Source of the DNA: a virus | DNA: 64,000 nucleotides | Reading direction: 5' to 3' (one strand) | Virus record (IMG/VR): IMGVR_UViG_3300045988_114464 | Location: 32,001-96,000 of that record | Shown: positions 771 to 51,596 of the stretch, piece by piece | Layout of the letters: every line of letters starts with the position of its first letter | How positions within the stretch are numbered: the first letter of the stretch is position 1 | Program-made: the position numbers and the translations under genes | Notes under the pieces: model-generated | The model's database searches: none | What the model was told of the DNA's origin: nothing | Seen by the model: the letters and a program-made list of their open reading frames with translations, nothing else

Positions 771-2096
771 CTATACTCGTTTAGGATGTTCTTTGTATTT
801 GGGGTATAAATCATAATTATAAGCCGTGTCATATTGCCAAGTAAATCCACCGCAGTGTTTATATTTACCTGTACAGCATTTTTGGATATTTTGTGCCAGT
901 ATGCCTGTTTCAAACGAAGCTGAAGAAGCGTCAAGATAGTGAGTATTTGTTTCGACACAATATACTGGTGTACTACCTTTTATTGGTTTGTTTATAATAG
1001 CTTGAATTTCTTCAAGTTCTAATTGAGAGTATTCGTCATAAAACATCCATTTTAAGTATTGTCCTTCGGCAAATCCAGCATATTCGCTTTTGTGTTCGGC
1101 ACAATTTCTAATAGAATCGCTGAATTTGATATTAGCGTAATCTCTTGCTTCTACCTGTGTTTTATAAATTTTTCCTGTGTTTAAGCATACAATAGGTGGG
1201 TTGACATTAGTCCATCGTTGGACAATAATTTCTGTGATAGTTTCATTTGTAAGTTCTTCATAGTCGTTAATATAAATAAAAATTTGCCCGTAAGTAGTTT
1301 TTTTATCGCCACGGCAACTGCCAGCAACAAGACTATAGGGAATATCGTAATATTCGCTGGCTTTTGAAGGATTGTCAAAAATTTTACCATCAATCAAATT
1401 CATGACAGGGTTAAATTTAAGGCTTTGTAGATAATTCGCGTGTTGCTTTTTTCTATCTTCAAAAAGTTGTTGATAATCTTCAAGAGACTTAGATTTATCA
1501 TATTTTTCCCAAAACAAAGGAGCGCCTTCAATATTTTTGCCCGCAGTCCATTGTCGGCTATTTGTTTCAAATATATGAGATATATTTCGTTCATGGCAAC
1601 CTGTGCATCCTTGTTTGGTCTTTTCTTCTCCTGCAATGGTTAAAGACGGAAAAATCTCTAAGGTGTTTAAGCAAATAACAGGAATGTTTACAGATAGATT
1701 TGCTCTATCGTGATGTTTTCCATAAAAACTATTGTTCTTCCCCTTTCTTGTTTCAGAAAAAAGTTGTTTGGTTTCTTCGCTATGATGCCTACCAAACATA
1801 GGCGCACTACCGCCGATTGAAAGATTATATCCAATCTTAGGGTCACGAGCATGATATTTGTCAATTAGTTCAATTTCTTTTTGAAAGGCTTCTTCTTGAG
1901 TTAGGCCTTCAATCAAAATTTCTTTTATGAAATTATTTTCGCCATATTTTTGAATAGCATGATGCAAACGAGGGTTGCCTTTATATCCATACCCACTTTG
2001 CCATCTTTCTTTTAGAGTTCGTGAAGTGATGCCTATATATATTAAACCGTTGTGTTTATCGGTATATTTGTATACCTTCCAAGTGTTGTTGCACAT
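771..2096 (-). CDS. GIY-YIG homing endonuclease (I-TevI-like, free-standing)
   Basis: N-terminus NGLIYIGITSRTLKERW...YGYKGN...QKEIELIDKY...GYNLSIGG carries the GIY-YIG catalytic core residues. NUMOD3-like repeats follow (GRHHSEETK.., FYGKHH). Confidence 0.85.
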   Translation of the reverse strand: MCNNTWKVYKYTDKHNGLIYIGITSRTLKERWQSGYGYKGNPRLHHAIQKYGENNFIKEILIEGLTQEEAFQKEIELIDKYHARDPKIGYNLSIGGSAPMFGRHHSEETKQLFSETRKGKNNSFYGKHHDRANLSVNIPVICLNTLEIFPSLTIAGEEKTKQGCTGCHERNISHIFETNSRQWTAGKNIEGAPLFWEKYDKSKSLEDYQQLFEDRKKQHANYLQSLKFNPVMNLIDGKIFDNPSKASEYYDIPYSLVAGSCRGDKKTTYGQIFIYINDYEELTNETITEIIVQRWTNVNPPIVCLNTGKIYKTQVEARDYANIKFSDSIRNCAEHKSEYAGFAEGQYLKWMFYDEYSQLELEEIQAIINKPIKGSTPVYCVETNTHYLDASSASFETGILAQNIQKCCTGKYKHCGGFTWQYDTAYNYDLYPKYKEHPKRV

Positions 2097-2422: not shown

Positions 2423-2451
2423 TTGACGAAAGTGTAGAAGAGCGGTATAAT
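2423..2451 (+). promoter_or_regulatory. near-consensus sigma-A promoter with no ORF downstream
   Basis: TTGACG (2423-2428), a 17-nt spacer, then TATAAT (2446-2451). The next 400 nt are non-coding and highly structured. Confidence 0.55.
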
Positions 2452-2507: not shown

Positions 2508-2610
2508 AATTTTCTTTTAGTTATAAAAAACCATTTTATCTATATATAAGTCCTGCTTACGCAGTCCTTATATATATCTAAAGCCGTTATTTTATAACTA
2601 AAAGAAAATT
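2508..2610. repeat. 103-bp nested inverted repeat (cruciform or long hairpin)
   Basis: The outer arms 2508-2528 and 2590-2610 are perfect 21-nt reverse complements. Inner arms are TATATATAAG (2541-2550) / CTTATATATA (2567-2576) and CTGC/GCAG around a TTAC loop. Confidence 0.9.
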
Positions 2611-2733
2611 TTCCAAGCGTTAATTACTTTAGTGATTTAACGCTTTAGTACGTTAAAGTGTATACGCAGTTAATCTCTGATTAACGTAGTACATATATAT
2701 TATAATATATTTATATATTATAATCGCGTGCGC

Positions 2734-2833
2734 GTAGCACATATTTGTTAAAAAGTCAAGACCTAAATTGTAAATAATTTGTGAACAAAATATGAACGGA
2801 GTATGACTTGACTTTTTTGTAAAAATGTGCTAC
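2734..2833. repeat. imperfect 27-bp inverted repeat flanking the AAATTGT motif
   Basis: GTAGCACATATTTGTTAAAAAGTCAAG (2734-2760) faces the reverse complement of 2807-2833 (GTAGCACATTTTTACAAAAAAGTCAAG). The right arm is the rightward promoter. Confidence 0.8.
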
Positions 2834-2836
2834 AAT
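2808..2836 (+). promoter_or_regulatory. sigma-A-type promoter for the rightward operon
   Basis: TTGACT (2808-2813), a 17-nt spacer, then TGc-TACAAT (2831-2836). It lies 35 nt upstream of the first rightward ORF. Confidence 0.65.
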
Positions 2837-2870
2837 AGTTATAATAAATAATAGAATCGAGGTGAGAGAG

Positions 2871-3050
2871 ATGGCTTGGACAGAAATGAGTTATAACAGA
2901 AATTTTTTTGATGACACACTTGACGAAGATACAATTTGTCATAAGAAGTCATTAAGTGAATCATATACTTTGCGCTTACAGAAACGACAAGAGATGGAAA
3001 GTAAGCGTCAAGAGCGACTAAAGAAGAAGTACAAGGGTGAGCAACAATGA
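2871..3050 (+). CDS. hypothetical protein (59 aa, basic C-terminus)
   Basis: I prefer ATG 2871, which follows GAGGTGA, over the track's GTG at 2862. The stop overlaps the RNAP start (ATGA). Confidence 0.5.
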   Translation: MAWTEMSYNRNFFDDTLDEDTICHKKSLSESYTLRLQKRQEMESKRQERLKKKYKGEQQ

Positions 3051-5671
3051 GCCTAACAAATCAAATTCATGCTTATTCGGTGGGTACGGACGCATTTTAT
3101 GATGAATCTGAGCAATTTATTCATAAGCGTTTATTGAAACTGTATAAGCTACGAGCAGTTAATCGCAAGTATAAAGAAAAAGAAACTGAATATTCATGGG
3201 GTACAGCGTGTATCAATCGAGTAATCAAGAAAGAAAAAGAACAACTTGAACAATTACTCAATAAGCGTCTGGAAAGCACTGAACCGCGCACAATGAATCC
3301 AGAAGTTTTGAAGGATAAAAATGTTATTTCATTGTTTGTTAGTTCGCTTACTCGTGCTATTGGAATTGAACACAATCAGTTGTCTGAAGATATTTTTGTT
3401 ATCAGCGTTTATTTCTTTCAAGTATTTCATAACATTGTTCGTGATGGGTTTATATATAATGGAGAAAAATATATTTTTCTTACGGCTTCGGCAGGACAAA
3501 TACGCACAAAGAAAGCGGTTTTTATAAAAGAATCGACTTTTAATCGTATTAAGATGCGAATGATGTGCGGACTAACCGTTGAAGAAATCAACGAAGCTGG
3601 TGGCACAAATGAGAATAAGTTTCTTGCTTATCTTGCTCTTGGTAATTCTGCTACAGATGTTTGGGAAGATTTTGATATTGATAAGTCGATTGTAGTCGAT
3701 GACTTTGAAACAGAAATTCAAACTGAAGTTGACCACATTTCTGCTGATTATAGCATTAAGCGTGAAGTTACTGGTACAGTAATTCCTCACATGGATGGTT
3801 GTGGAATAATGTTGGATAAACCTACGAGAATGGTTCGCGCTCCGTGGATTAAAGGCTTGCTTGTGCATTTTCCTTTTGACAAGTTTATTCAAGAAAAATG
3901 TGACGGCAAAGCAATAGTAACTGATATTTACGGTCAAGACCATGATATTCTTGCTGAAGATATTCGATATATTTTCACAAAAAGCCAGTTTAAGATGTAT
4001 AAGTTTTATCAATCATGGGAAGATTACAAGCAAAAGTTTAAGCAATATCGTTGTGAAGCGTGCTATTGTAATATGGAAGAACAAGATATTCCTCGCGCCA
4101 GAATCAATTATCAGATGCTTCAAACGCTTACTGATATGACCGATGAAGAAATTGCTACATTGACCAAAGAGACAGTTGAAGAAATTGCAGCTATTGGTAA
4201 TGATTTTCAAACTTCTATGAAATTGATTGGCGCAACTTCATATAACAAAAATCCAAGTTATGTGCAAGAAGCGTTAATGATTTATCCAGAACTTATGCGT
4301 GACCAGTATAGCCGTGATATTTTGAAAGAAACTAAAAAGAGTTTGATTAAGCAAGCAAAATCAGGGCGGTTAAGAGTGAATGGCAAATATCTCTTTTTAT
4401 CTCCTGACCTATATGCGTTTTGTGAATGGCTGTTTCTTAATGAAGTGAACCCAAAAGGATTGCTTCAAGACGGCGAAGTGTTTACTACGCAGTTTAGTAA
4501 TGGTGATGAAGTTGCTTGTTTGAGAAGTCCGCATTTGTATCGTGAATGGGCGATTCGCAAAAATGTAAAGAATGAAGATTTGAACAAGTGGTTTGGGGAA
4601 ACGAAATGTGTGTATACCAGTTGTCATGATTTGATTTCAAGGATTCTTCAATTTGATGTGGACGGAGACAAGAGTTTGGTCATTAAAGACAAATTGTTGA
4701 CTTCTATAGCAAAACGTAATATGGCAGGAATTTGCACACTTTCTTATGATTTGAAGAAAGCAAAGGTTGGCGCTATCTCTCCTGACAATATTTACCATAG
4801 TATGACCAAGGCTTATACAGGTGGTAATATTGGTGTAATTAGTAATCAGATTACAAAAGTATGGAATAGTCCTAATTTAACAAAAGATTATGATAGCGCT
4901 CTAAAGACAGTAAAGTTGTTTACTTATATCAATAATCAAGTAATCGACTATGCTAAGACGCTGTGGAAAGTTGACCCACCTTTTGAAGTTGAAGAAATGA
5001 TGAAACGATATACCAAAGCGAAACCACCATATTTTTTCATTTATGCTAAAGACAAGAAGAAATCACAAGTAGAACCGCCAAACAATTCTACCATGAATCG
5101 TATTTGTCAGTCAATCCCCAATAATCGAGTTAAGTTTGCGAAAATGTGTGATAATTTTGATTATCGTATGTTGATGAATCTTGATTATGGTTTTAGTATT
5201 AGTGAAGATAATCAGATAATTGAAAGATATAACTATTGGAATCGACACCAATATTTGTTTAATACTGAAGCTGAAAATGCAAAGCAAGAAGATATGTATA
5301 TGTTTCAACAAATTCGTAAACATATTCTTGCAGAAACTAACGAAGATATTAACGTGGTAGTTAATACGTTGGTCATGTATCTTTACACTATTAAAACAAA
5401 CAACATGAAGAAAACATTATGGGCTTCTTTTGGTGATATACTTGTTGAAAATCTGAAAAAGAATACGGCAAGTCTTGGTAAGGTTTGTGAAGAATGCGGA
5501 GATAGATTTATTTCATTGCAAAGTAATCATCGGTTCTGTTCTGATGAATGTTGTAAGAAAGCAAGAGCTAAAAGATTAAAGCAAAAGCGCAAGTTTTGTA
5601 CGCTCGTTCAGAGCGAAAAAGTTGCAAATATCGAAGATATTTCTCAAAATAAACAAAATAGTGTAGATTAA
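3047..5671 (+). CDS. YonO / QDE-1 (RdRP-family)-like single-subunit two-barrel RNA polymerase
   Basis: Three motifs were read by eye: IFLTASAGQIRTKKAVFI, ACLRSPHLYREW and FDVDGDK (DxDGD at nt 4655-4669). A C-terminal CxxC..CxxxCC zinc ribbon follows. The 874-aa length is similar to YonO. Confidence 0.7.
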   Translation: MSLTNQIHAYSVGTDAFYDESEQFIHKRLLKLYKLRAVNRKYKEKETEYSWGTACINRVIKKEKEQLEQLLNKRLESTEPRTMNPEVLKDKNVISLFVSSLTRAIGIEHNQLSEDIFVISVYFFQVFHNIVRDGFIYNGEKYIFLTASAGQIRTKKAVFIKESTFNRIKMRMMCGLTVEEINEAGGTNENKFLAYLALGNSATDVWEDFDIDKSIVVDDFETEIQTEVDHISADYSIKREVTGTVIPHMDGCGIMLDKPTRMVRAPWIKGLLVHFPFDKFIQEKCDGKAIVTDIYGQDHDILAEDIRYIFTKSQFKMYKFYQSWEDYKQKFKQYRCEACYCNMEEQDIPRARINYQMLQTLTDMTDEEIATLTKETVEEIAAIGNDFQTSMKLIGATSYNKNPSYVQEALMIYPELMRDQYSRDILKETKKSLIKQAKSGRLRVNGKYLFLSPDLYAFCEWLFLNEVNPKGLLQDGEVFTTQFSNGDEVACLRSPHLYREWAIRKNVKNEDLNKWFGETKCVYTSCHDLISRILQFDVDGDKSLVIKDKLLTSIAKRNMAGICTLSYDLKKAKVGAISPDNIYHSMTKAYTGGNIGVISNQITKVWNSPNLTKDYDSALKTVKLFTYINNQVIDYAKTLWKVDPPFEVEEMMKRYTKAKPPYFFIYAKDKKKSQVEPPNNSTMNRICQSIPNNRVKFAKMCDNFDYRMLMNLDYGFSISEDNQIIERYNYWNRHQYLFNTEAENAKQEDMYMFQQIRKHILAETNEDINVVVNTLVMYLYTIKTNNMKKTLWASFGDILVENLKKNTASLGKVCEECGDRFISLQSNHRFCSDECCKKARAKRLKQKRKFCTLVQSEKVANIEDISQNKQNSVD

Positions 5672-5730: not shown

Positions 5731-5786
5731 GATTCCTCCGATGGGCGGGTATATAAATTGGGGTTTAGCCCGCCCATTGAGGAATC
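5731..5786 (+). other. long GC-rich stem-loop without a U-tract
   Basis: GATTCCTCCGATGGGCGGG (5731-5749) pairs with CCCGCCCATTGAGGAATC (5769-5786) with one or two mismatches. It sits between the RNAP gene and the next gene. Confidence 0.7.
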
Positions 5787-5807: not shown

Positions 5808-7007
5808 ATGGAACGACAGGAAACGCAGTCTTATCTTGCTTTCGTTGAAGAAGCAACTAAGGCTCTGCAAAATGATGAAATTTCTTACACTGAATGGTGT
5901 AAAGCGATTGTTGGTGAAAAGATTTATTCTGACGAAACCCTAAGACGATGCGCTGTGCTGTTTGGTGAATTTTTAGAGCGACTTGACGCAGATGAGATTA
6001 AAACTCTAAATGACGAAGATAGAGTTAATCGTCTTATTGAAGCAAAAGAAGAATTAGTTAAGGAACGGAAGAAAATTCAAAGCGCTAATCTTGAACACCA
6101 AGAATATTATCGCAAGGTTGCTCGACACGAACTTCTTGACGAAATGATTGTAGACGCGATTAAGCGCCTTGAGCCAGTTAAGATTAAACACGAACATTTT
6201 ACCAAGCCTTCTAAAAGTACAGGCGTTCTTGTGCTTGCTGATGAACACTTTGATTCAACGTTTGTACTCAAAGGGTTAAATGGTGAGATTATCAACGCTT
6301 ACGACAAGGAAATTTTCAAAGAACGTATGTGGCGATTGCTTTCTATGATTGAAAGCGATAACTTTGATTATGACGAACTGCTGATTGTTAGTTGTGGGGA
6401 TGCAATCGAAAATGTCCTCCGCATGGGTAGTTTGCAAAAGTTGCGTTCTAATGTTGTAGATGCAGTTATTGAATTTTCTGAGTTTATGTCACAATGGCTT
6501 ATTGTTGTTCAAGAAAAGTTGAAAGTTCCAGTGAAATTTGCTATTATTTCTGGCAATCACGATGTTAATAGAATTTTAACTCAGCCAGCCGTATTCCCAG
6601 AAGAAACGTTTGCTAAGATTATTCATAAGTTTATTGAAATGCGTCTTGAAGGGTGTAAACCAGATATTACAGTAGAACCGTATGGCGATGTATACTTTAC
6701 TTGTTTATATGGTAATAATCTACTGTTTGCTCATGGCGAAACAAATAATCTTATTGAATTGGCAAATTATTATGAGAATTTCTATGATATTCAGATTGAT
6801 TGCTTGTATGCTGGTCATCTTCATAGAAGCGAAACTAAGCCAGCGGGTGTTGGTTATATGGGCGACCGCGAAGTGATTCGTGTACCGTCTACTGTAGGCA
6901 CTGACCCTTATGCCAAGAGTATTCAAAAGCATAGTCGTGCTGGCGTTTACTTTGCCGTGTATAATGAAAACGGCAGAGATTTAAGCAAAATTTATTATTT
7001 GAATTAA
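5808..7007 (+). CDS. calcineurin-like metallophosphoesterase (Mre11/SbcD-like fold)
   Basis: The ordered motifs LADEHFD, CGDAIEN, SGNHDVN, FAHGE and AGHLHR are typical of metallophosphatases. Confidence 0.7.
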   Translation: MERQETQSYLAFVEEATKALQNDEISYTEWCKAIVGEKIYSDETLRRCAVLFGEFLERLDADEIKTLNDEDRVNRLIEAKEELVKERKKIQSANLEHQEYYRKVARHELLDEMIVDAIKRLEPVKIKHEHFTKPSKSTGVLVLADEHFDSTFVLKGLNGEIINAYDKEIFKERMWRLLSMIESDNFDYDELLIVSCGDAIENVLRMGSLQKLRSNVVDAVIEFSEFMSQWLIVVQEKLKVPVKFAIISGNHDVNRILTQPAVFPEETFAKIIHKFIEMRLEGCKPDITVEPYGDVYFTCLYGNNLLFAHGETNNLIELANYYENFYDIQIDCLYAGHLHRSETKPAGVGYMGDREVIRVPSTVGTDPYAKSIQKHSRAGVYFAVYNENGRDLSKIYYLN

Positions 7008-7180
7008 ACAAAGTAATCTGGCATAGGATATGTTAGATTGTAGAATAAACAACGTAAGGAGGTCACTACTTTTGTCCACTTGTGAAATTTTCACTAAAGC
7101 ATGAAAGGAGTTGGTCTTGGGCGTAAGCCTTATCTCGGTGTAAGTCGTTCTTCGACACGATACTGCACAGCGTTGGAAAA

Positions 7181-7219
7181 AACAGGGCGGGAGCAATAGT
7201 TCCTGCCCTTGTTATTTTG
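7181..7219 (+). terminator. rho-independent terminator
   Basis: The stem AACAGGGCGGGA / TCCTGCCCTTGTT is followed by ATTTTG. Confidence 0.5.
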
Positions 7220-7238
7220 AAAGAAAGGAAAATTTGAA

Positions 7239-8150
7239 ATGGCAACTACACCTCCAAAACAGTTACGCAGAACAGACCGATGTTGTCCTATTTGCGGAAC
7301 TGTTAAGTTAGCGAACTATTTCAATGAAAGTCCTGCCCCATATCACGATAAGTATATTCCTATTTGTCGTAACTGTTGCAATATACTGTTAAAGAGATAT
7401 ATTGCTGAAACGAAAAGTGAAGCCGCGGGCTTGTGGTTACTGTTAGCCCAAGTAAATATTCCATTTATCAATGAAATTTATGAGAAAGCTATTCTTAGGC
7501 TTCAAGACGCTTCTACAAAGAAGCCAAGTTTATTTGTGACATATCTTAGCTTTATGGCACAATGGAATGAACCGTATACTGGTTTTTTGCAGTCTACCAA
7601 TATGCTGACTGATTTTCTAAAGACGGTTGAAGTAGAAGCGGAAAAAATTCGCACCGAACAAAAACCGCTGAAGAATATGAAGGAAGAAATTGAGAAGTGG
7701 GGTAAATTTACAGGAGTTGACGGCAAAATTGACAGAGATTCTTATGATTTTTTGAATAGAACCTTTGATGAGTATACCGCCGATATTCTTGAAATGGACA
7801 CTAACTTAATGAATCGTTACCGCGATTTGTGCAAATGCGAATTGCGTTTGCGTAAAGCTAATGAATCGGGTGACGGTGCTGAGATTAGTAAAGCACAAGA
7901 TGCTTTGAACAAACAATTGGCTCTATTAAAGCTAAATGATTTCCAATCTAAGAACATTAGCGATGAGCAGAAGGCTTTTGAAAAGAAAGTCGCTATGATT
8001 GAATATAGCAAACCTGCTGAGTGTGAAGATTTACAGAAATATCTTGACATGGTAGGTTACGAGAAAGAAAAAGCAATGCTAAAGCGTTCTCTTAGAAATG
8101 CTGTAACTGGTTCTCGTGAATATCCTGATGTAACATTGCAGGAGGGATAA
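7239..8150 (+). CDS. hypothetical zinc-ribbon protein, possibly terminase small subunit by position
   Basis: CPICGT...CRNCC sits at the N-terminus and the rest is coiled-coil rich. The gene is immediately upstream of, and translationally coupled to, the large terminase. Confidence 0.35.
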   Translation: MATTPPKQLRRTDRCCPICGTVKLANYFNESPAPYHDKYIPICRNCCNILLKRYIAETKSEAAGLWLLLAQVNIPFINEIYEKAILRLQDASTKKPSLFVTYLSFMAQWNEPYTGFLQSTNMLTDFLKTVEVEAEKIRTEQKPLKNMKEEIEKWGKFTGVDGKIDRDSYDFLNRTFDEYTADILEMDTNLMNRYRDLCKCELRLRKANESGDGAEISKAQDALNKQLALLKLNDFQSKNISDEQKAFEKKVAMIEYSKPAECEDLQKYLDMVGYEKEKAMLKRSLRNAVTGSREYPDVTLQEG

Positions 8151-8151
8151 T

Positions 8152-10017
8152 ATGGGAAATAGCTTACCAGCTATGGGCGGTATTCGCCGTAAGTTTATGG
8201 CAAAAGAACTCCGAGGAACAGTTAGTGGTGCTGACTTGCTTGAGAAAGAGCAAGAAGAAAAAGTAATTGAATGGGACACATTATTTAGACGTAATTGGGA
8301 TATATACGCAGAATTTTATCTTGGTATTGGTCTAAAGCCATATCAGCGTGAAGCGTTGCATGAGATTGGCACATCCGATGTGTTCTTTTGGCGTGCTGGG
8401 CGTGGTGGTGCAAAGTCATTTATTACTGCTCTTGCCGCAATTTGTAAACTGATGCTTTATCCAAACTGTTGGATTGTTGTTACTGCTTCTACTATTGACC
8501 AAGCAAATAAAATTGTAGAAGATAAGATATTGAGCGAATTGGTTAAAAAATTATCACCATATTTGTTGTATCTTTATGAAAAGCAGTGGCTTGTTATTAC
8601 TAAACCACAAGACGGCTATAAGATTGAAAATACGCTGAACAATAGTGTATTGCGTGTTCTTGCTCCTGTTGAGTCCAGCCGTGGTGTGCGTTCAAATTTC
8701 ACAATTTATGACGAAGTGGCTATTATGAAGAAGGCGAGTATCGACCAAATCTTTGATGGTATGCTTTATCCGCGTCAACCAGTATTTTTGAATAACAATC
8801 CAGAATATGCAAACAACCCACGTTGGCTTGAAGAATCAAAGGCTATTTATCTAACTTCTTCCAAATATAAATATCAATGGTGGTATGGACTTTGGAAGGA
8901 ATGTGTTAAAGGTTGGTTTGATGATAAAAAGACAGTGTTCAATGTTTTTGCTTCAGACTTTTTCGATAATATTGATAATGGTCTAAAGACATGGGGCGAC
9001 TATCGCCGTGCTAAAAAGACTACGGAAGAATTTTCTTTCCGTATGGAGTATCTTAATGAAGCAATAGGTGAAAATGAACACGCCTATTTTACCATTCAGC
9101 AATTCAAAGAAAACCAAACGCTTGAAAAAGCATTTGTTCCTCCAACAAATATCGAAGTTATAACTCAAACCGCGCCTTACAATCCACCGAAGGGCGAAGA
9201 TGAAGTACGCTTGATTCTTGTTGACTACGCATTTGCTAATACAGTAAAGGGTGCTGGTCGAAAAGCAAACGACAATACGATTATTATTTGTATGTCTTTG
9301 CATTGGAAAGAGAATCATTTTGAGCGTCATGTTGATTATATTCAAGGTTGGGAGGCTTCTGATTCCACTGGTGCAGTAAATCGTATTCGTGAATTATATT
9401 GGGACTATCAAACCGACTATATTGTTGATGACCAACAATCTGGCGGTGAAGTAATTTATAATTTATTTACTCAACCTTGGGAACATCCAGAAAGAGGACG
9501 TGCATGGAATAGTCATGGTTTTACTATCAGTGATAAAACTGAATATGTTTCAGCAGTGGCTATTGATAGTAAAATTGAAGATTATAAAATGCGTACAGTT
9601 GACCCGCACGCTATCCCTTGTATTATTCCTGTTAAGGGTTCTTCAACACTTAACGATATTGTGTGGAAAGAAATGCGCCGTCAGCTTGAGTATGGTAATG
9701 TTAAGTTCTTGATTGACACTAACGATTTCCAAGAAACTTTAGTTGACAATGGCGAATATTTCAAAATGACTTCTGAACAGTATGGCGTTGCTTGTGCTCC
9801 ATACAATCATACAGAAGAATTGATAAAAGAAGCAGTAAACCTTAAAGCTGAGTTTAAGCAAGATAAGGTGCGTCTTTCTGAGCCGTTAAACGGTACAAAA
9901 GACCGTATTGTTGCTTTAGCCTATGGTAATTATATTGCTACTTTAATTGAAAACAGATGGAATAAAGATATAGCACAAGATGAATTTGATATTGATTCAA
10001 TTCAGCTTGTGTGGTGA
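8152..10017 (+). CDS. terL: terminase large subunit
   Basis: It has a Walker A-like WRAGRGGAKSF, a Walker B-like FTIYDEVA and a C-terminal RNaseH-like segment (ILVDYAF...). Size and position before the portal fit. Confidence 0.8.
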   Translation: MGNSLPAMGGIRRKFMAKELRGTVSGADLLEKEQEEKVIEWDTLFRRNWDIYAEFYLGIGLKPYQREALHEIGTSDVFFWRAGRGGAKSFITALAAICKLMLYPNCWIVVTASTIDQANKIVEDKILSELVKKLSPYLLYLYEKQWLVITKPQDGYKIENTLNNSVLRVLAPVESSRGVRSNFTIYDEVAIMKKASIDQIFDGMLYPRQPVFLNNNPEYANNPRWLEESKAIYLTSSKYKYQWWYGLWKECVKGWFDDKKTVFNVFASDFFDNIDNGLKTWGDYRRAKKTTEEFSFRMEYLNEAIGENEHAYFTIQQFKENQTLEKAFVPPTNIEVITQTAPYNPPKGEDEVRLILVDYAFANTVKGAGRKANDNTIIICMSLHWKENHFERHVDYIQGWEASDSTGAVNRIRELYWDYQTDYIVDDQQSGGEVIYNLFTQPWEHPERGRAWNSHGFTISDKTEYVSAVAIDSKIEDYKMRTVDPHAIPCIIPVKGSSTLNDIVWKEMRRQLEYGNVKFLIDTNDFQETLVDNGEYFKMTSEQYGVACAPYNHTEELIKEAVNLKAEFKQDKVRLSEPLNGTKDRIVALAYGNYIATLIENRWNKDIAQDEFDIDSIQLVW

Positions 10018-10040: not shown

Positions 10041-11621
10041 TTGGCAGATTCTATTTCAAAACAGGACGTACAGGACGTCATTGATTTTGCACAAGCCATT
10101 GCCGCTATGTCAGGTGAATATGGTATGTATTCTCCAATGATGAGTAATCAACTATTGCAAAATCTAAACAACAATCCTCGTATTCCTTCGCTTGAATCTA
10201 TTCAACAAGCATTATCATCTTATAAAGAAGATGCTGGCACGTTGCAATCCTTTATGGATTTTATGAATAACTATGATATGGTATTTAAGCGTACTTTATA
10301 TAGTTATGCGAATGTGCTTGCTTTTGACTTATCTATGACTTGTACTAATGCTTATTCTCAGCAAGATTACAATTCTAAAGAATACGAAGAAGATAAGAAG
10401 CGAGTATATGATTTTCTTGACAAGTTTAAGTATAAAGACGAGTTTAGAAAATGTGTAGTTGAAGTTCTACTACATGGTGCTTACTTTACTTGGTTTAGAA
10501 AGACTAAGTGGAAGAATCAAGGTATGAAATATGCGCTACAAATAATGCCGCAACAATATTGTATGCTCACAGGATATTGGGAGAAAGGTTTGCTATATGA
10601 CTTTGATTACAGCTATTTCCTAAATCCCGGTGTTGATATTGAAGGATTTGACCCTTCTATGGCTAAGATGTATCGTCAAATGTTTATTGATGGCGATGGT
10701 AGATTGTATAATTATCGTCCTACTCAACCGTTAAATAGACGTACTGGTAAATATGCTTATTGGGGACAGACTTCCCCTGAGGATGGTTCGTGGGTTTTTA
10801 AGCAAAATCCAGAGAACTTTAATACTACGCCATATCTTGCTCCTTTCTTGAAAGACGCTATTACTTCTGCCGAAATCCAGAAGTTACAGCGAGATAAGGA
10901 TATTATTGGTGCTTCAGCTATTCTCGCGGGTGAGATTCGATTGTTCGATAGTGCAAAATCTCAAAAAGCTAATCAATTTGCTATCGACCCAAAAACCCTT
11001 GGTGGTTTTATGGCAAAGGCAAAGGCTGGTCTTGGCAATTTGCTAAAGATTGCGGCGCTACCGCTTGAAAATACCAAATTCTATCAGTTCGTTGATAGCA
11101 ATAGCGATATGTATGAAAATACGCTTGCTACTACCGCTGGCGTTGGCTCTGGTATCAGTCGTGTTATTTATTCGTCTGACCGAATGAGTAATGCTGAAAT
11201 CGAAGCAGGTATTATTGACCAATATAATACTATGAAGCCACTGTATTATCAATTTGAGAATTTTCTTGATTTCTTTGTTAATAAGTTGACAAAGAAATAT
11301 AAATTCCATTTTACTTTTGATGGATGCTCTTATCCATTTGAACGTGAGAAACGATTTGATAAACTAACCAAGATGGCTGATAAAGGTTTGGTTATGAATG
11401 CTTCACAATGGGCTTCGGCTATTGGCGTTGAACCACAAGTATTTGAACGTAGCCTTGCGGAAAGTAAGTACACGGGCTGGGTTGAAGAATATAGCCAGTT
11501 GCTTATGAATGTTAATACGGCTAATACTGGTAGTACTGGTGAAAGTGGCAGACCCAAGAAAGAAGATGGAGATTTGTCCGATTCGGGCGAATTGAATAGA
11601 GATAGTGAGGAAGGTATCTAA
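10041..11621 (+). CDS. portal protein
   Basis: A 526-aa ORF directly after terL with an acidic C-terminus and a TTG start after AAAGGAGGA. The call rests on position and size. Confidence 0.6.
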   Translation: MADSISKQDVQDVIDFAQAIAAMSGEYGMYSPMMSNQLLQNLNNNPRIPSLESIQQALSSYKEDAGTLQSFMDFMNNYDMVFKRTLYSYANVLAFDLSMTCTNAYSQQDYNSKEYEEDKKRVYDFLDKFKYKDEFRKCVVEVLLHGAYFTWFRKTKWKNQGMKYALQIMPQQYCMLTGYWEKGLLYDFDYSYFLNPGVDIEGFDPSMAKMYRQMFIDGDGRLYNYRPTQPLNRRTGKYAYWGQTSPEDGSWVFKQNPENFNTTPYLAPFLKDAITSAEIQKLQRDKDIIGASAILAGEIRLFDSAKSQKANQFAIDPKTLGGFMAKAKAGLGNLLKIAALPLENTKFYQFVDSNSDMYENTLATTAGVGSGISRVIYSSDRMSNAEIEAGIIDQYNTMKPLYYQFENFLDFFVNKLTKKYKFHFTFDGCSYPFEREKRFDKLTKMADKGLVMNASQWASAIGVEPQVFERSLAESKYTGWVEEYSQLLMNVNTANTGSTGESGRPKKEDGDLSDSGELNRDSEEGI

Positions 11622-12350: not shown

Positions 12351-14174
12351 TTGGAAAAGAAATATACTTTCGCGGTAGACGATATTCAGCGTATTCAAGC
12401 TGACGATTATGCAGAAGATGAGTTTTGTTTGGCGCGTCTTGGCTTTCTAAGCACACGCCCTAATGCTCATGGACTAATTATTTCTGAAGAAGTGCTTCGT
12501 GAATCTGCGCCAACCATTCTCAATAAATGGCTTGTGGCAGATATGACCGCAGTATATGACGCTTCTACTCACACTGATAAAGAACAGATTGTCGGACGCA
12601 TTCCAGACAATCAAGAAGTAGAATTTGTTGAAGATGAAGATGGCTATCTACGAGCATATGTAGATGTAGTTATTAGTAAAATCTACGCTAAGAATTTTTG
12701 CGAAATGTTTGAACGAAACAACAATCGTTCAGTTAGTGTGGAAATGATTACTTGGGGAACTGAAGAAAATGAAAATGACCTTGTAGGCTTTCGTATTGTA
12801 GGCTGTACTGTTTTGGGTCAGTCAGTTAGTCCCAGTTGTCCTCAATCGGATATTACTTTTACACGCTTTTCAGCCGAAGAAGCTGATAGTTTCTTTGCAC
12901 AAGCTATTGGTGGACTCACCGATTTAACTAAATTTGTGAATGAAAGGAAACGCGCTATGGCTGATAAATCTTACAAAGTAGATAAGTCCAAAGAAGCTAT
13001 GTCGGACGATAATTGGGGTTCTGTTGACAAGACTTCAATGCGTAATAAGATTATGGACGCTTCTAACAAATCCAGTCTTGTAAAATCAGTTTACGCACTG
13101 GTTGAGAGTGGATGGGAAGAATCTCCATCCGAACATCTTAAATATCCAATTATGCAGTTAAAGGGCGACACGTTTGTTTATAATCGTGGTGCGCTATCTT
13201 CTGCGCTTGGGTACGCTAAAAAAGAAGAAGAAACCGCAGTAGTTTCTAAAATTGAAAAGATTTATAAGAAACTTGGTCTTGACTCTGAAGGAAAGGAGGA
13301 AACCGAGAAAATGTCTAAGGAAATTAAATTTGCCGCTGTTAACCTTGACAATCTATGGAGCGCTTTGCGCTCTGCTATGAATGACCATTCTTGGTATTAT
13401 TATATTGACGGTATTTATGAAGAAGATAATCAGAAGTTCGCTATTATTATTGATGACAGAGATGCAGTTAAGAAATATCGTCTTGATTTTAATTACACAG
13501 AAGATGGTCTAACCGTTGCTGATGAAATCACTGAAGTAAAGGTTGATTTTGTTCCTACTGAGAACATAAAGAAGTTTGCCGAACCAGAGAACGCCGAAGA
13601 AGTCAAAAAGTGCGCCGAGCCTGAGAAAAAGGAAGGCGAAGATGGCGATGACGGCAAGGACAATAAGAAGAACGCAGACGGTAAAGCCGAAGGTGAAGAG
13701 GGCGATGATAACGAAAAGAAGAAGCTATCAGACCCAGAGCCAGCAAAAATGTCTGTAGAAGAAATGGAAAAGAAACTTGCTGAACTCCAAAATGATGTTG
13801 AAGAAAAAGAAAACATCATTATGGAAAAGGATAAGAAGCTATCTGAGCAAGAAGCAGAACTTTCCGACCTTCGTGAGTTCAAGGCTGGTATTGAGAAGGA
13901 AGGTCTTTCTAAGGATGTTGAGAAGGTAATGGCAGACGTTAAGGACTTTATTGATAACACTAAGTTTGCCGAACTGCGCGAAGAAGGTCTTGCTTGTGAT
14001 ACTACCAATTTTGATGCGTGGTCTAACAAGGTTAAGGCTACTTGCTTCTCTGCTATTCAGAAGAAGGGGCTAAAGAAGCAGACCAATACTGTTTGGTCTT
14101 TCTCTGCACCAACCGAAACTGAATCGAATGTACCGACCGATTTTTGGTCACAAATGAAATCAAAATATAACTAA
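12351..14174 (+). CDS. prohead protease fused to an acidic coiled-coil scaffold domain
   Basis: The N-terminal region (AHGLIISEEVL...HTDKEQIVGRI...YLRAYVDVV...RSVSVEM) resembles HK97-type (S78) prohead proteases. The C-terminal half is E/K/D-rich and scaffold-like. Confidence 0.55.
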   Translation: MEKKYTFAVDDIQRIQADDYAEDEFCLARLGFLSTRPNAHGLIISEEVLRESAPTILNKWLVADMTAVYDASTHTDKEQIVGRIPDNQEVEFVEDEDGYLRAYVDVVISKIYAKNFCEMFERNNNRSVSVEMITWGTEENENDLVGFRIVGCTVLGQSVSPSCPQSDITFTRFSAEEADSFFAQAIGGLTDLTKFVNERKRAMADKSYKVDKSKEAMSDDNWGSVDKTSMRNKIMDASNKSSLVKSVYALVESGWEESPSEHLKYPIMQLKGDTFVYNRGALSSALGYAKKEEETAVVSKIEKIYKKLGLDSEGKEETEKMSKEIKFAAVNLDNLWSALRSAMNDHSWYYYIDGIYEEDNQKFAIIIDDRDAVKKYRLDFNYTEDGLTVADEITEVKVDFVPTENIKKFAEPENAEEVKKCAEPEKKEGEDGDDGKDNKKNADGKAEGEEGDDNEKKKLSDPEPAKMSVEEMEKKLAELQNDVEEKENIIMEKDKKLSEQEAELSDLREFKAGIEKEGLSKDVEKVMADVKDFIDNTKFAELREEGLACDTTNFDAWSNKVKATCFSAIQKKGLKKQTNTVWSFSAPTETESNVPTDFWSQMKSKYN

Positions 14175-15878: not shown

Positions 15879-15907
15879 TTGACTATTATTGCAAAGTATG
15901 CTATAAT
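15879..15907 (+). promoter_or_regulatory. intron-internal promoter
   Basis: TTGACT, a 17-nt spacer, then TGc-TATAAT. It lies inside a roughly 35-nt insert that the paralogous intron lacks. Confidence 0.5.
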
Positions 15908-16029
15908 ATATTATATATGGAAAACCTTCAACGATTATCTCCTTATGGGAGAGTAGGCTACAAGCTAATGGTAGTCGAAAAATGCAACTCTTATACATTA
16001 TAAAAATTTTTAAGAAAGGAGGGAAAAAT

Positions 16030-16920
16030 ATGTTAGTCCCCAATCAATATATTACTGTTAATTGGCATCCAAGAAATAAAGTACATTTGGAAAGTAAAGG
16101 ATATATTTACACACACATTGGTCTACCTGTTCAAGTTAAAGTTGAAGATATGATGGCAGGTTCAAAATGCAGAGTAAAAGTACAATGCGATTATTGTGGA
16201 AAAATATATACCAAGGTATATAAAGATTATTTTGCTCAAAGACAAAACGGAAAAGATTGTTGCGCTAAATGTGCTTCTAAAAAGCGAGGAGAAACCAATC
16301 AAGAATTGTATGGCGGTAATGCTCCTGCTTGTTCTCCTAAAGTTGTAGAGAAAATGCAAAAATCTTGTTTAGATAAATATGGCGTTAAAGTGCCTTCTAA
16401 ATCGTCAAAGGTAAAGGCAAAAATGAGAGAAGTTAATATGGAACGATACGGTTTCCCTGTTCCATGCCAAAATCCAAGTGTACGCGCTAAATTTATTGAA
16501 ACAAATCAAAAGCGACATGGTGGTAATGGAAGTCAATGCAATCCAGAAGTTCGTAAGAAAACCATGCAATCTTTTATAAAACATGGTACGATTTGTTCTT
16601 CTGAACCAGAACGCGAAATGGTTAAAAAATTACAAAAGCTATATGGTTCTCAGAATTGCTTTCCACAATATTTGCTTGATAAAATTGTGTTTGATTGTTT
16701 GGTTATTGTTAATGGTGTCAAAATTGATGTAGAATTTGATGGAAAATATTGGCACAAAGACAAACACAAAGATATTCGGAGAGATTATTACAGTTTTTCT
16801 CAAGGATATAAAGTATTACGCTTTAGTGGGGATAACGATGCCCCTACTGAAGAGCAAATTCAACAAGGAATAGACTTTTTGGTGACAACCACTCACCGCC
16901 ATTTAATTATTGATGTATAA
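16030..16920 (+). CDS. intron-encoded Vsr/DUF559-like (PD-(D/E)XK) homing endonuclease
   Basis: I prefer ATG 16030, which follows AAGGAGGG, because it aligns with the N-terminus of the paralog at 21588. The C-terminus KIDVEFDGKYWHKDK..DIRRDYY..GYKVLRF follows the Vsr/DUF559 pattern. The middle has repeated KYGV..P motifs. Confidence 0.7.
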   Translation: MLVPNQYITVNWHPRNKVHLESKGYIYTHIGLPVQVKVEDMMAGSKCRVKVQCDYCGKIYTKVYKDYFAQRQNGKDCCAKCASKKRGETNQELYGGNAPACSPKVVEKMQKSCLDKYGVKVPSKSSKVKAKMREVNMERYGFPVPCQNPSVRAKFIETNQKRHGGNGSQCNPEVRKKTMQSFIKHGTICSSEPEREMVKKLQKLYGSQNCFPQYLLDKIVFDCLVIVNGVKIDVEFDGKYWHKDKHKDIRRDYYSFSQGYKVLRFSGDNDAPTEEQIQQGIDFLVTTTHRHLIIDV

Positions 16921-21536: not shown

Positions 21537-21565
21537 TTGACTTTTAAGTATTATTATGATATAAT
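21537..21565 (+). promoter_or_regulatory. intron-internal promoter for the endonuclease gene
   Basis: TTGACT, a 17-nt spacer, then TGa-TATAAT, 22 nt upstream of the TTG start. Confidence 0.5.
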
Positions 21566-21587: not shown

Positions 21588-22505
21588 TTGCTGTTAAAAG
21601 ATAATTTAGTTGAAATGAAATGGCATCCAACTAATAGAGTTAAATATGCAACTCGTGGTTATAAATTTACCGCTTTTGGCGAAAAGTTTTATGCAAAAGC
21701 GAGTGATGTACTTGAGTTAAGTAGTGGTGCTAAAATTCCTGTGCAATGCGATTATTGTGGCAAAATTTATTATCCTACTTCTCGTAATTATGAGAAATCA
21801 CAGTTACGAAAAGAGAAAGATTGTTGTGTTGCTTGTAAAGGTAAAGAAATTCGCGCAACCGTACAAAAGAAATATGGTGTTAATAATGTAGTAGAGTTGG
21901 ATGAAGTACGCATGAAGATGAAAGAAACTTGTCTTTCAAAATATGGTACTTCTTCTCCGCTTGAGAATAAAGAAATTTTTCAGAAAACACAAGATAGTTT
22001 TAATTCTCATTATGGAACAGAAAACGGTATTAAAGATTTGCGTTCTGTTCCAGAAATTGCTACAAGAATTGAGAATACTAATATTTCTAAGTATGGTGGC
22101 AAAGCACCAATATGCTCTTCTAAAATTAGGAACAAAATCAACCAAACAATGTATGAAAACGGAACTTGCAAAACTTCAGAAAAACAACTGTTATTGAATC
22201 AAATGGTAATTGATTTATACGGTAATTCTGAGTTGAATTATCCTTGCGATAAAGTGTCTTTGGATTGCATGACGATTGTCAATGGAATTAAAATTGACAT
22301 TGAATATGATGGTTGGTATTGGCATAAAGACAAACAAGAAGAAGATAAGCGCAGAGATTTCTTTGTAGAGTCTAAAGGTTATAAAGTTATTCGCTTTATA
22401 GCTTATGAAAACAGACTCCCTACCGAAGAAGAATTACGCAACGCAATTCATAAAATTACAACAACAAGTAGAAAATTTACTAAAGTCAAATTAAATAAAA
22501 TCTAA
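21588..22505 (+). CDS. intron-encoded Vsr/DUF559-like homing endonuclease (paralog of 16030-16920)
   Basis: It aligns by eye with the other endonuclease along its whole length (..KWHPTNRVKY..VQCDYCGKIY.., KIDIEYDGWYWHKDK..KRRDFF..GYKVIRF). Confidence 0.7.
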   Translation: MLLKDNLVEMKWHPTNRVKYATRGYKFTAFGEKFYAKASDVLELSSGAKIPVQCDYCGKIYYPTSRNYEKSQLRKEKDCCVACKGKEIRATVQKKYGVNNVVELDEVRMKMKETCLSKYGTSSPLENKEIFQKTQDSFNSHYGTENGIKDLRSVPEIATRIENTNISKYGGKAPICSSKIRNKINQTMYENGTCKTSEKQLLLNQMVIDLYGNSELNYPCDKVSLDCMTIVNGIKIDIEYDGWYWHKDKQEEDKRRDFFVESKGYKVIRFIAYENRLPTEEELRNAIHKITTTSRKFTKVKLNKI

Positions 22506-26732: not shown

Positions 26733-26760
26733 TTGACAACGCTAAATAATATGATATAAT
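26733..26760 (+). promoter_or_regulatory. promoter for the small intervening-sequence ORF
   Basis: TTGACA, a 16-nt spacer, then TGa-TATAAT, followed by AAGGAG and ATG 26786. Confidence 0.55.
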
Positions 26761-49812: not shown

Positions 49813-50775
49813 TCACATTGATTTGCGGTCTTTGAACTCTGCGAGTTTGTGGTCTGCATACATGGTTCTGCCTTTGATTTTAGAATATCCTAAATATCCG
49901 TTCATTCTCTCAATACGAGTGATGTTTTTACTGCCACATTTAGGACATTCATCTTTATCAATGAAAGAAGCGCCACAATCTTCACAATAATCAAGCTGTA
50001 GATTTACACCTTCATAGAAGCCCATATCCATTGCTCTACGAATGAGAGTTTTCATTGCTTCAATATTGTAGTCTGTAGTATAACGACAATATTGAATATT
50101 ACCACCATTACATAGATGGAACATTGGATATTCAATATCTTGCTTTTGAATAGGCGAAATATCTTCCCATACACCACAATGAAACGAATTAGAAGTGTAA
50201 GGACGGTCAGATACGCCCTTAATAATGCCGTATTTCTTGCGGAACTGCTCGACCTGCAAACCGCAAAGGGATTCAGCAGGAGTTCCGTAGAGAGCATATA
50301 GAATGTTGTCGATTTTCTTATATTTCTCAGCATAATCATTGATAAACTTCAAAACTTCAATGGCAAAAGTATTATCTTCGGCAATGGTTTTACCGTTATA
50401 CAGTACACTGGTTTCATTGAGTGCAGTAATACCAAAACTCATTGTCATAGGACGAAGGAAATCTTCGCCAATTTCTTCTTCTGGGTCAAAGTGACCATTA
50501 AGAAAACCGCCTTGACAGAAAGCAAGTGGGTTAGTACCAGCTTTCTTGTGAGAAAGATAAGTAAATGTGCGCTTGTGAATAGCGCGGCACATATCAAGAT
50601 AATAAGTTAGTACGTCATAAAAATCCTTGTTTTCTTGCTTTGCTTTAGCAAGAATCATAGGAAAGTGAAGGGAGATTGCTCCGAGGTTACAACGCCCTTC
50701 ATATACAGGCTTGTCTTGGTCATCTGCGGGGTACATACCGCCACGCTCATACCAAGGTGAAAGATTTGCTCGACA
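49813..50775 (-). CDS. anaerobic ribonucleotide reductase NrdD, exon 2
   Basis: It starts CRANLSPW..EGRCNLGAISL and ends with the zinc site CEDCG..CPKCG and the glycyl-radical loop RMNGYLGY. The track's Met is a TTG that belongs to the intron. Confidence 0.85.
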   Translation of the reverse strand, partial: CRANLSPWYERGGMYPADDQDKPVYEGRCNLGAISLHFPMILAKAKQENKDFYDVLTYYLDMCRAIHKRTFTYLSHKKAGTNPLAFCQGGFLNGHFDPEEEIGEDFLRPMTMSFGITALNETSVLYNGKTIAEDNTFAIEVLKFINDYAEKYKKIDNILYALYGTPAESLCGLQVEQFRKKYGIIKGVSDRPYTSNSFHCGVWEDISPIQKQDIEYPMFHLCNGGNIQYCRYTTDYNIEAMKTLIRRAMDMGFYEGVNLQLDYCEDCGASFIDKDECPKCGSKNITRIERMNGYLGYSKIKGRTMYADHKLAEFKDRKSM

Positions 50776-51596
50776 CAAGGGAATTATATCCCTTAGACTA
50801 TATCATAATTGTTTGGTCAATTCTTCGCGCTTCCATAGCAAGAATTGCACTTGCTATGTACTCTACTTGGTTACTTTCTGATACAACCCAAATTACATAT
50901 CAGATACCCTTTCGATAGTCGTTTAACATACATATTCAAATTTGTAATTATCGAAGTAATTAGGACTTAATTCGCCTTTTAGCACTCGCGCAATTTTGTG
51001 CCTATCCATATGTAAACATCTACCAGCTTCACGAATAGAAGTGAAATTTTGCACATTGCCTTCTTTGTCAATAGCGCGAATAGCCGTGTTGTTTTTGTGT
51101 GTTCTATTGCCACTATCCCAACCATGTTGTACATTATAAGCATTAGTACACCATTCAAGATTTTCAAGACGATTGTCTGTTTTATCAGAATTGATATGAT
51201 TAACGTACTTATAATTGTTAGGATTTGGGATGAAACAATGTGCTAAGATAACATGAACTCGTTCATGTACAAAACTGTGGTCAGGTAAACTACGCATTAC
51301 TTGCATATATCCATCACTGCCTTTATGTGGGGTGACTTGATTACCTGTGCGAGAGTTATAAAAGTTAAAATTTTCATCTACCAAAAATCCGTTGTATTCT
51401 TTATATTGCATTTTATCACCTTCTTTCGTATAAAATCATTTGAATATGCTTAGCACAGCGATTATTTCATACTTTTGTATGAACCTTCCCTGTTAGCAGA
51501 GATATTAACAAACCATTTCCTGTTTGAACTTACGTTATCTCCACACCATATATTTATATGTTCACGAAGTTTTACATGGGCTATCGTGTCATTTCA
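50776..51596 (-). mobile_element. group I intron in nrdD
   Basis: P1 pairs exon AUGGGU with intron GCCCAU (51581-51576), giving a U-G wobble at the splice site. It has the R-like element AAACGACTATCG, the S-like element GATATAGTCTAAGG and a terminal G at 50776. Removing it joins ..ISRMG|CRANLS.., the conserved NrdD motif, in frame. Confidence 0.85.
50923..51411 (-). CDS. intron-encoded HNH homing endonuclease
   Basis: VHVILAHCFIPNP..VNHINSDKTDNRLENLEWCTNAYNVQH, with its own RBS (GAAGGTGA). Confidence 0.8.
   Translation of the reverse strand: MQYKEYNGFLVDENFNFYNSRTGNQVTPHKGSDGYMQVMRSLPDHSFVHERVHVILAHCFIPNPNNYKYVNHINSDKTDNRLENLEWCTNAYNVQHGWDSGNRTHKNNTAIRAIDKEGNVQNFTSIREAGRCLHMDRHKIARVLKGELSPNYFDNYKFEYVC

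Follow-up and report, generated by a model that had tools for sequence, protein, structure and literature searches.

The smallest relative of the cellular RNA polymerases (RNAPs) that we know of is YonO, a single-subunit enzyme of the Bacillus subtilis prophage SPbeta. YonO is a strict DNA-dependent RNAP that strongly prefers DNA templates, pauses less and makes more errors than Escherichia coli RNAP, and has no homology to the trigger loop, as reported by Forrest et al. (PMC5467207). The enzyme appears upon prophage induction and is required for plaque formation, and deletion of yonO silences 37 late genes, which form one operon starting downstream of yonO and upstream of yonK at genome position 2,225,998, with the promoter left undefined (PMC5467207); our search of a limited set of papers found no later one defining it. 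The SPbeta master repressor MrpR binds the yonP promoter (PMC10516654), and yonP-yonO is therefore under repressor control as a unit, presumably transcribed by the host polymerase. Here we analyze a YonO-family gene and its surroundings in a 64,000-nt stretch of a phage genome (positions 32,001 to 96,000 of IMG/VR record IMGVR_UViG_3300045988_114464), which we call the window and which is identical to part of a 113,623-bp human-gut metagenome contig (ENA ERZ28663390 scaffold_83). Among GenBank phages, no DNA nearly identical to the window was found.

Phage-encoded transcription enzymes with the same single-polypeptide, two-barrel make-up have also been described for the crAss-like phage phi14:2 (virion RNAP) and for P23-45 (tape-measure-fused and non-virion RNAPs; bioRxiv 10.1101/2020.03.07.982082, 10.1101/2022.12.01.518664). 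On these descriptions YonO is not the sole characterized phage example, and the first-pass annotation of the window, which had presented it as such, is outdated for the wider two-barrel class. The virion RNAPs of phi14:2 and P23-45 are packaged and act on early genes, whereas the window gene is placed like yonO and its product is presumably made after infection. None of these enzymes appears among the 50 PDB fold matches of the window polymerase model described below.

The window protein agrees with the YonO family in every feature that could be tested; it adds a member to that known family and does not represent a novel type of enzyme. Our best explanation, to which we assign a probability of roughly 80%, is that the gene encodes a YonO-family single-chain DNA-dependent RNAP with two predicted double-psi-barrel domains, an Asp-triad metal site and a four-Cys ribbon, which most likely transcribes the late genes. 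The gene and its landmarks are:

3047..5671, plus strand: YonO-family single-subunit RNAP gene (two-barrel fold predicted), ATG start, 874 amino acids (aa), identified by homology, motifs and fold.
3794..3853, plus strand: D250 ... R264-x4-K269, proposed catalytic residues of the beta-like barrel, invariant in 43 sequences.
4523..4531, plus strand: R493-S-P495 in LRSPHL, proposed equivalent of QDE-1 R962/P964, from invariance and spacing.
4655..4669, plus strand: D537-V-D539-G-D541, metal-binding Asp triad, from the YonO alignment and invariance.
5486..5554, plus strand: C-terminal four-Cys ribbon (C814, C817, C831, C835), from invariance, with a basic low-confidence tail.

Compared with SPbeta YonO by BLASTP, the protein is identical at 372 of 835 positions (E = 0; query residues 2-831), which corresponds to 45% identity over 95% of its length. 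It matches PHROG 8308 end to end (E = 2e-250) and, at residues 121-672, positions 52-560 of the 582-position Pfam profile PF05183 for RNA-dependent RNA polymerase (RdRP; E = 2.7e-13; 49.9 bits against a gathering threshold of 23.8). Forty records came up in a translated search of GenBank phages. Heading the list were Clostridium phage D-1873, Psychrobacillus phage Perkons and members of the SPbeta group (SPbeta, phi3T, SPR and the Goe phages), each aligning with 95% of the query at 44-46% identity, and tblastn against a set of 26 SPbeta-like phages gave the same 44-46% over 95%. Members of the family are very numerous in gut and environmental phages, with more than 4,000 database clusters (4,140 at E <= 1e-5 among the candidates examined) and 463 IMG/VR contigs encoding a relative, and copies 92-98% identical recur on contigs of ~107-114 kb from many independent samples. 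Sequence and profile searches of the PDB, including one with a sub-fragment at E values up to 10, returned no match to the polymerase.

We aligned 43 homologues down to 43% identity, among them the B. subtilis 'DNA-directed RNA polymerase YonO' (P0121). Invariant in this alignment are D250, R264, K269, R493, P495, D537, D539, D541, C814, C817, C831 and C835. The triad lies in FDVDGDK (aa 536-542) and aligns with the Asp residues of QFDNDGDK in SPbeta YonO, where the published 3D>3N mutagenic primer encodes QFNNNGNK and Asn substitution of the triad abolished RNA extension (PMC5467207). Two-barrel RNAPs have eight invariant catalytic residues, of which an Asp and two basic side chains sit in one barrel and an Arg, a Pro and the Asp triad in the other, and the window protein has both the triad and these residues in common with the multi-subunit beta/beta' core (PMC2919709). 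The spacing of R264-x4-K269 equals that of QDE-1 R738/K743, and R493/P495 lies 44 residues before the triad, the distance from QDE-1 R962/P964 to D1007 being 45. From this spacing, the invariance and the published residue list (PMC2919709), we propose that D250/R264/K269 would be the equivalents of QDE-1 D709/R738/K743, and R493/P495 those of R962/P964.

The blocks that the first-pass annotation had picked out by eye are all present in this open reading frame (ORF): IFLTASAGQIRTKKAVFI at aa 143-160, ACLRSPHLYREW at aa 490-501, the triad, and the Cys ribbon C814-x2-C817 ... C831-x3-C835-C836, which is followed by the basic tail KKARAKRLKQKRK. SPbeta YonO and the window polymerase share the QFDxDGDK triad, the LRSPHL and SAGQIRTKK blocks and the C-terminal ribbon; the window protein is 35 residues longer at its C-terminus. 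Some YonO homologues (P0216, P0232) carry the Joint Genome Institute label 'ribosomal protein L37E', a misleading automatic annotation that presumably derives from this ribbon.

An AlphaFold2 model based on the 43-homologue alignment has a mean predicted local distance difference test score (pLDDT) of 85.9 and a predicted template modeling score of 0.82. Its poor regions are confined to residues 740-747 and the last 25 residues (pLDDT below 50 at 850-874), and the Cys ribbon scores 81-87. In the model the Asp triad occupies a loop that leads from helix 529-534 to strand 543-546, in a region with six predicted strands (477-567), while the D250/R264/K269 region contains predicted strands 252-255, 261-265 and 268-274. 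A Foldseek search of the PDB with this model, the check suggested in the first-pass annotation, returned 21 significant matches, all to plant RDR2 or fungal QDE-1 (E = 2.5e-17 to 6e-11; probability 1.00; template modeling score 0.42-0.53; 795-956 aligned columns; 11-13% identity). Subsequent matches had E > 1, several of them to beta'-type subunits, so that fold matches to the multi-subunit core are marginal. Among predicted viral structures, the top matches were phage proteins annotated 'RdRP' (E = 4.7e-34 and 1.9e-29). The window polymerase thus has the overall predicted fold, PF05183, the DxDGD metal loop and the R-x-P block in common with QDE-1 and RDR2 (PDB 2J7N, 5FSW, 7RQS, 7W82), and differs from them in its structural identity of 11-13%, its phage context and its expected DNA-templated function. 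Full-length homology, catalytic residues, predicted fold and an SPbeta-like gene order together support the earlier proposal of a YonO-like single-subunit RNAP near late genes.

The gene order matches SPbeta yonP-yonO-(yonN)-...-yonK-yonJ-...-yonG-yonF-yonE-yonD:

2873..3050, plus strand: 59-aa ORF in the yonP position, its stop overlapping the polymerase ATG (ATGA).
5808..7007, plus strand: YonJ-like exonuclease gene, 399 aa (PHROG 284 exonuclease, E = 2.4e-35; Pfam YonJ_CC).
7239..8150, plus strand: YonG-like gene (Pfam YonG_N).
8152..10017, plus strand: large terminase gene (Pfam TerL_ATPase; tblastn match to SPbeta yonF).
10041..11621, plus strand: portal gene, YonE-like (portal PHROG).
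12351..14174, plus strand: gene for a YonD_N-domain protein (Pfam YonD_N).

The exonuclease gene also has a tblastn match to SPbeta yonJ, and its product is 27% identical to YonJ. The 59-aa ORF stands where SPbeta has the 64-aa yonP directly upstream of yonO; it is also called as a gene on the source contig, no family match was found for it, and the ATGA overlap suggests translational coupling with the polymerase gene. Further downstream on the same strand follow genes for a virion structural protein, for the tape measure (2,022 aa; tape-measure PHROG) and for tail and fiber proteins, and the same-strand late block that begins at 7239 ends near 44.1 kb. The opposite-strand block at 44-64 kb is devoted to DNA metabolism (exonuclease V/Dda-like helicase, methyltransferase, anaerobic ribonucleotide reductase). 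In SPbeta and in the window alike, a sigma-A-type promoter lies upstream of the polymerase gene, and homologues of YonJ, YonG, terminase, portal and YonD follow downstream on the same strand. The window lacks the HU-like yonN gene, and whereas SPbeta has a 1.7-kb non-coding spacer between its polymerase and exonuclease genes, the window has none there and instead carries a 231-bp non-coding leader (7008-7238) between the YonJ-like and YonG-like genes. The elements that bear on transcription in this part of the window are:

2423..2451, plus strand: sigma-A-like promoter TTGACG-17-TATAAT, the second upstream of the polymerase gene (promoter scan).
2808..2836, plus strand: sigma-A-type promoter TTGACT-17-TACAAT with extended -10 TG, 36 nt upstream of the small ORF (promoter scan).
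5731..5786, plus strand: long GC-rich hairpin just after the polymerase stop, 56 nt, without a U-tract (minimum free energy -40.1 kcal/mol, z = -2.76).
7053..7184, plus strand: structured RNA 'R1', ~135 nt, candidate late-operon leader (covariance model 69.8 bits, E = 8e-14).
7184..7219, plus strand: intrinsic-terminator-like hairpin (11 bp, 7 of them G-C) with a T-run, 20 nt before the YonG-like start codon.

Near-consensus TTGACA-17-TATAAT promoters also precede the pair of small ORF and polymerase gene in distant relatives (L020, L026, L033, L035, L038), and this conservation supports expression of the polymerase gene by the host sigma-A polymerase. The first-pass annotation had seen the gene as following a rightward consensus promoter, directly upstream of the terminase and heading the structural operon. 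The promoter is indeed present at 2808-2836, with the 59-aa ORF intervening; the 399-aa exonuclease gene and the 231-bp non-coding region separate the polymerase gene from the terminase module; and the gene probably does not head the structural operon in the transcript sense, because it has its own conserved sigma-A promoter, because a terminator-like hairpin stands before 7239, and because the SPbeta start lies downstream of yonO. The polymerase gene is therefore probably an earlier unit, transcribed apart from the structural genes. GC-rich hairpins occupy the same post-polymerase position in L004, L005, L006 and SPbeta, and the one at 5731-5786 is a candidate processing site, weak terminator or promoter element. 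The sequence TGTGCTACA, which overlaps the -10 of the polymerase promoter, was considered as an operator but is not significant (2 copies against 0.55 expected; equaled in 9 of 100 shuffles).

The structured RNA R1 is conserved among relatives of the window. Iterated nhmmer searches with the gap region found similarity in 36 loci, always on the plus strand, and we aligned 21 R1 sequences to a 35-pair structure derived from individual folds. Of the cells in this alignment 82.6% form pairs, and sliding the partners by 1-3 columns lowers this to 34-45%; the first value is inflated because the structure was derived from the same sequences. Stronger evidence comes from two-sided changes within pairs, seen in 119 cells, whereas the slid controls have 15-31. 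The controls reach covariation scores of 0.08-0.14 and the alignment 0.476. The resulting covariance model (137 positions) gives one match per locus in 34 loci, all on the plus strand (E = 2.4e-28 to 2.7e-10; for example L021 12047-12185, L084 13662-13802 and L002 9786-9930). In all 33 loci that reach the YonG-like gene, R1 lies 52-176 nt upstream of it and after the YonJ-like gene; the 34th locus (L005) stops short of the YonG-like gene and likewise has R1 after the YonJ-like gene. All 25 aligned relatives carry a strong hairpin after R1, with a U-rich tail that is clear in the window, L021 and L039/L002 and weak in, for example, L084.

In the consensus of the relatives, the long stem of R1 pairs the 5' strand GGUCAC..CCUU with GAAAGGAGGUGAUC, a 14-nt tract that we take to be complementary to the 3' end of 16S rRNA (B. 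subtilis sequence). The consensus is distinctive in that a mimic of the anti-Shine-Dalgarno sequence would sequester this 16S-complementary tract in a helix; the window copy of the tract, GAAAGGAGTTGGTC, is degenerate. Other parts of R1 are a single-stranded AUAUCU and a two-tier hairpin with UAAG and ACU bulges. At gathering thresholds Rfam 15 contains no match to R1 over the whole window, and a permissive scan of 6950-7300 gave a chance-level match only (E = 0.58, opposite strand). R1 is a candidate new RNA family and a candidate late-transcript leader, processive antiterminator, 5' stabilizer or attenuator.

For comparison with SPbeta, we placed the YonO start by means of the coordinates of Kohm et al. 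2023 (PMC10516654), which refer to strain SP1 and not to the 168 reference, and the SPBc2 annotation. Either of two coordinate pairs (mrpR G407A = 2,204,767; yoqA T68C = 2,201,412) makes genome and record positions sum to 2,286,453, so that the start falls at position 60,455 of the SPbeta record (15,403 of locus L001), a G, within the interval that the published primer-extension primers delimit (about L001 15,285-15,528). The R1 model detects nothing in SPbeta or Bacillus-type loci. A link between R1 and the SPbeta start drawn by eye (the 11-mer TGTCTGTATCT and 'TATC..GGTAAG') was discarded, as the model found none with filters on or off (best 8.8 bits, E = 0.29, wrong strand). The SPbeta late leader contains the Rfam motif DUF3800-VIII at L001 16384-16449, 3' of the mapped start, and the motif is also present in non-coding sequence of the gut relative L084 (13216-13283), about 380 nt upstream of R1. 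We also noted a sub-threshold match to the skipping-rope RNA after SPbeta yonN (L001 15030-15139; 29.6 bits against 36.7) and a hairpin with loop CUACUAAUCA that is shared by several gut loci and is also present near L001 16145.

If the window polymerase works as YonO does, the host sigma-A RNAP would, after infection or induction, transcribe the small ORF and the polymerase gene from 2808-2836, and probably the YonJ-like exonuclease gene too; the conserved promoter and the SPbeta repressor at the yonP promoter both point to such a step. The phage polymerase would then transcribe the ~37-kb same-strand block of packaging, head, tail and lysis genes from 7239, as suggested by homology with SPbeta, in which the yonO deletion silences the late genes. 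The hand-over would probably take place at 7008-7238, where, speculatively, the terminator would stop host read-through and the processive phage enzyme would pass. It is possible, though in our view doubtful, that R1 and the terminator act together in cis as a previously undescribed 'late switch' in gut phages that encode YonO; host transcripts would then end at the terminator and phage-polymerase transcripts would pass it or start just upstream, R1 acting as a processive-antitermination RNA or 5' stabilizer. If so, the 231-bp DNA fragment could be used for mapping the YonO promoter and its termination behavior.

Several observations weigh against our best explanation. The exonuclease gene of the window lies upstream of R1, whereas SPbeta yonJ lies downstream of the YonO start, and the covariance model detects no counterpart of R1 in the SPbeta late leader. 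What has been published for YonO is reduced pausing, not read-through of terminators (PMC5467207). In L077, merely 13 nt separate the exonuclease gene from R1, which leaves little room for a promoter, and R1 may sit inside a longer transcript instead of at its 5' end. Finally, the host polymerase could contribute to late transcription from three near-consensus sigma-A-like promoters within the late block:

15879..15907, plus strand: near-consensus sigma-A-like site with extended -10, before the homing-endonuclease gene 15982-16920.
21537..21565, plus strand: near-consensus sigma-A-like site with extended -10, before the homing-endonuclease gene 21588-22505.
26733..26760, plus strand: site identical to the sigma-A consensus at 12 of 12 positions (TTGACA-16-TATAAT, with TG), within the 587-bp gap that precedes the gene for the 2,022-aa tape-measure protein.

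We consider it unlikely that the host RNAP itself transcribes the late genes, with R1 as a cis-acting antitermination or attenuation RNA resembling the HK022 put RNAs or B. subtilis EAR, and with the YonO-like enzyme in an accessory role such as the synthesis of regulatory or priming RNA. A structured RNA and a terminator right before the first late gene are the usual layout of an attenuator or antiterminator, and a weak sigma-A-like site (CTGGCA-17-TAGAAT, 7018-7046) would place a transcription start close to the first base of R1; however, this site matches only 9 of 12 positions, and relatives show no sequence conservation upstream of R1. Strong promoters at three internal sites would likewise suit a host-driven late block, but two of them precede inserted homing-endonuclease genes (both of PHROG 12131) and not structural genes. 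The first-pass statement that late intergenic regions mostly lack sigma-A promoters accordingly holds broadly for the structural genes, though not absolutely. Promoter-like sites at 1-20 kb number 68, with 68.1 expected in shuffled sequence. Every one of the 37 SPbeta late genes is silent without YonO (PMC5467207).

That the enzyme is instead an RdRP, copying or amplifying phage or host RNA and not transcribing DNA, is very unlikely. The Pfam match is to an RdRP family, the nearest solved folds are the RNA-interference polymerases RDR2 and QDE-1, and relatives are annotated 'RNA-dependent RNA polymerase' in GenBank. Yet YonO, the only tested family member and 45% identical to the window protein, strongly prefers DNA templates, QDE-1 itself also shows DNA-dependent activity (PMC9508822), and the placement of the gene beside late genes in a double-stranded DNA phage matches SPbeta.

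Least probable, to the point of being hardly credible, is that the gene is a remnant, decaying or without activity, that travels with the module, as many relatives interrupted by ~1-kb insertions or called as 625-634-aa fragments might suggest, since the window copy is uninterrupted and keeps every invariant residue, near-identical copies occur in many independent samples, and the interruptions resemble intron or endonuclease insertions, with a separate gene between the halves in SPbeta relatives. In L005 the insertion (2570-3580) falls at polymerase residues 530-535, just before the DxDGD loop; interrupted matches of ~3.5 kb occur in the IMG/VR loci L044, L046, L053, L077, L084, L086, L087, L089-L091 and L093, and the polymerase gene is split in the GenBank SPbeta relatives phi3T, SPR, Goe11 and Goe14.

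With the YonO-family DNA-dependent RNAP as the preferred reading, the locus adds no new enzyme type, and its differences from SPbeta lie in the operon layout, the 35-residue longer tail and the leader RNA. The long late leader of SPbeta appears, in one large clade, to have shrunk to a short, conserved RNA structure followed by a terminator. This leader-plus-terminator region is a candidate handle on the YonO promoter question, and its compactness makes it convenient for in vitro work on promoters and on read-through of terminators.

Upstream of the polymerase gene, the promoter at 2423-2451 is followed by a large nested palindrome with perfect 21-nt arms (2508-2528 and 2590-2610) and inner 32-nt arms within 2525-2592, and further downstream by AT-rich palindromes at 2690-2724. 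This region (2423-2724) corresponds to the SPbeta yonR-yonP interval, which has been proposed as the location of the pac site (PMC8270828). Still further upstream lies a free-standing gene:

771..2096, minus strand: GIY-YIG/NUMOD homing-endonuclease gene.

Several IMG/VR contigs begin 120-340 bp before the polymerase gene, and a genome terminus was considered there; the closest of them (L018), 99% identical to the window, carries the Nextera transposase adapter at positions 1-47 (AGATGTGTATAAGAGACAG), an assembly artifact, and we discounted this evidence. The window contains no tRNA genes.

SPbeta resides in Bacillus. For the gut phage, host assignment from relatives in genome collections was abandoned, as the bins disagree (Gastranaerophilales, 'Rickettsiales', Bacilli, Clostridia, Lachnospira) and look like mis-binned phage contigs. 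The host is probably an anaerobe, because the phage encodes an anaerobic ribonucleotide reductase. This NrdD-like gene is split on the minus strand (49813-52784), with ORF 51594-52784 covering profile positions 5-392 and ORF 49813-50778 covering positions 393-711; a 162-aa ORF (50923-51411) between the two halves resembles an intron or endonuclease insertion.

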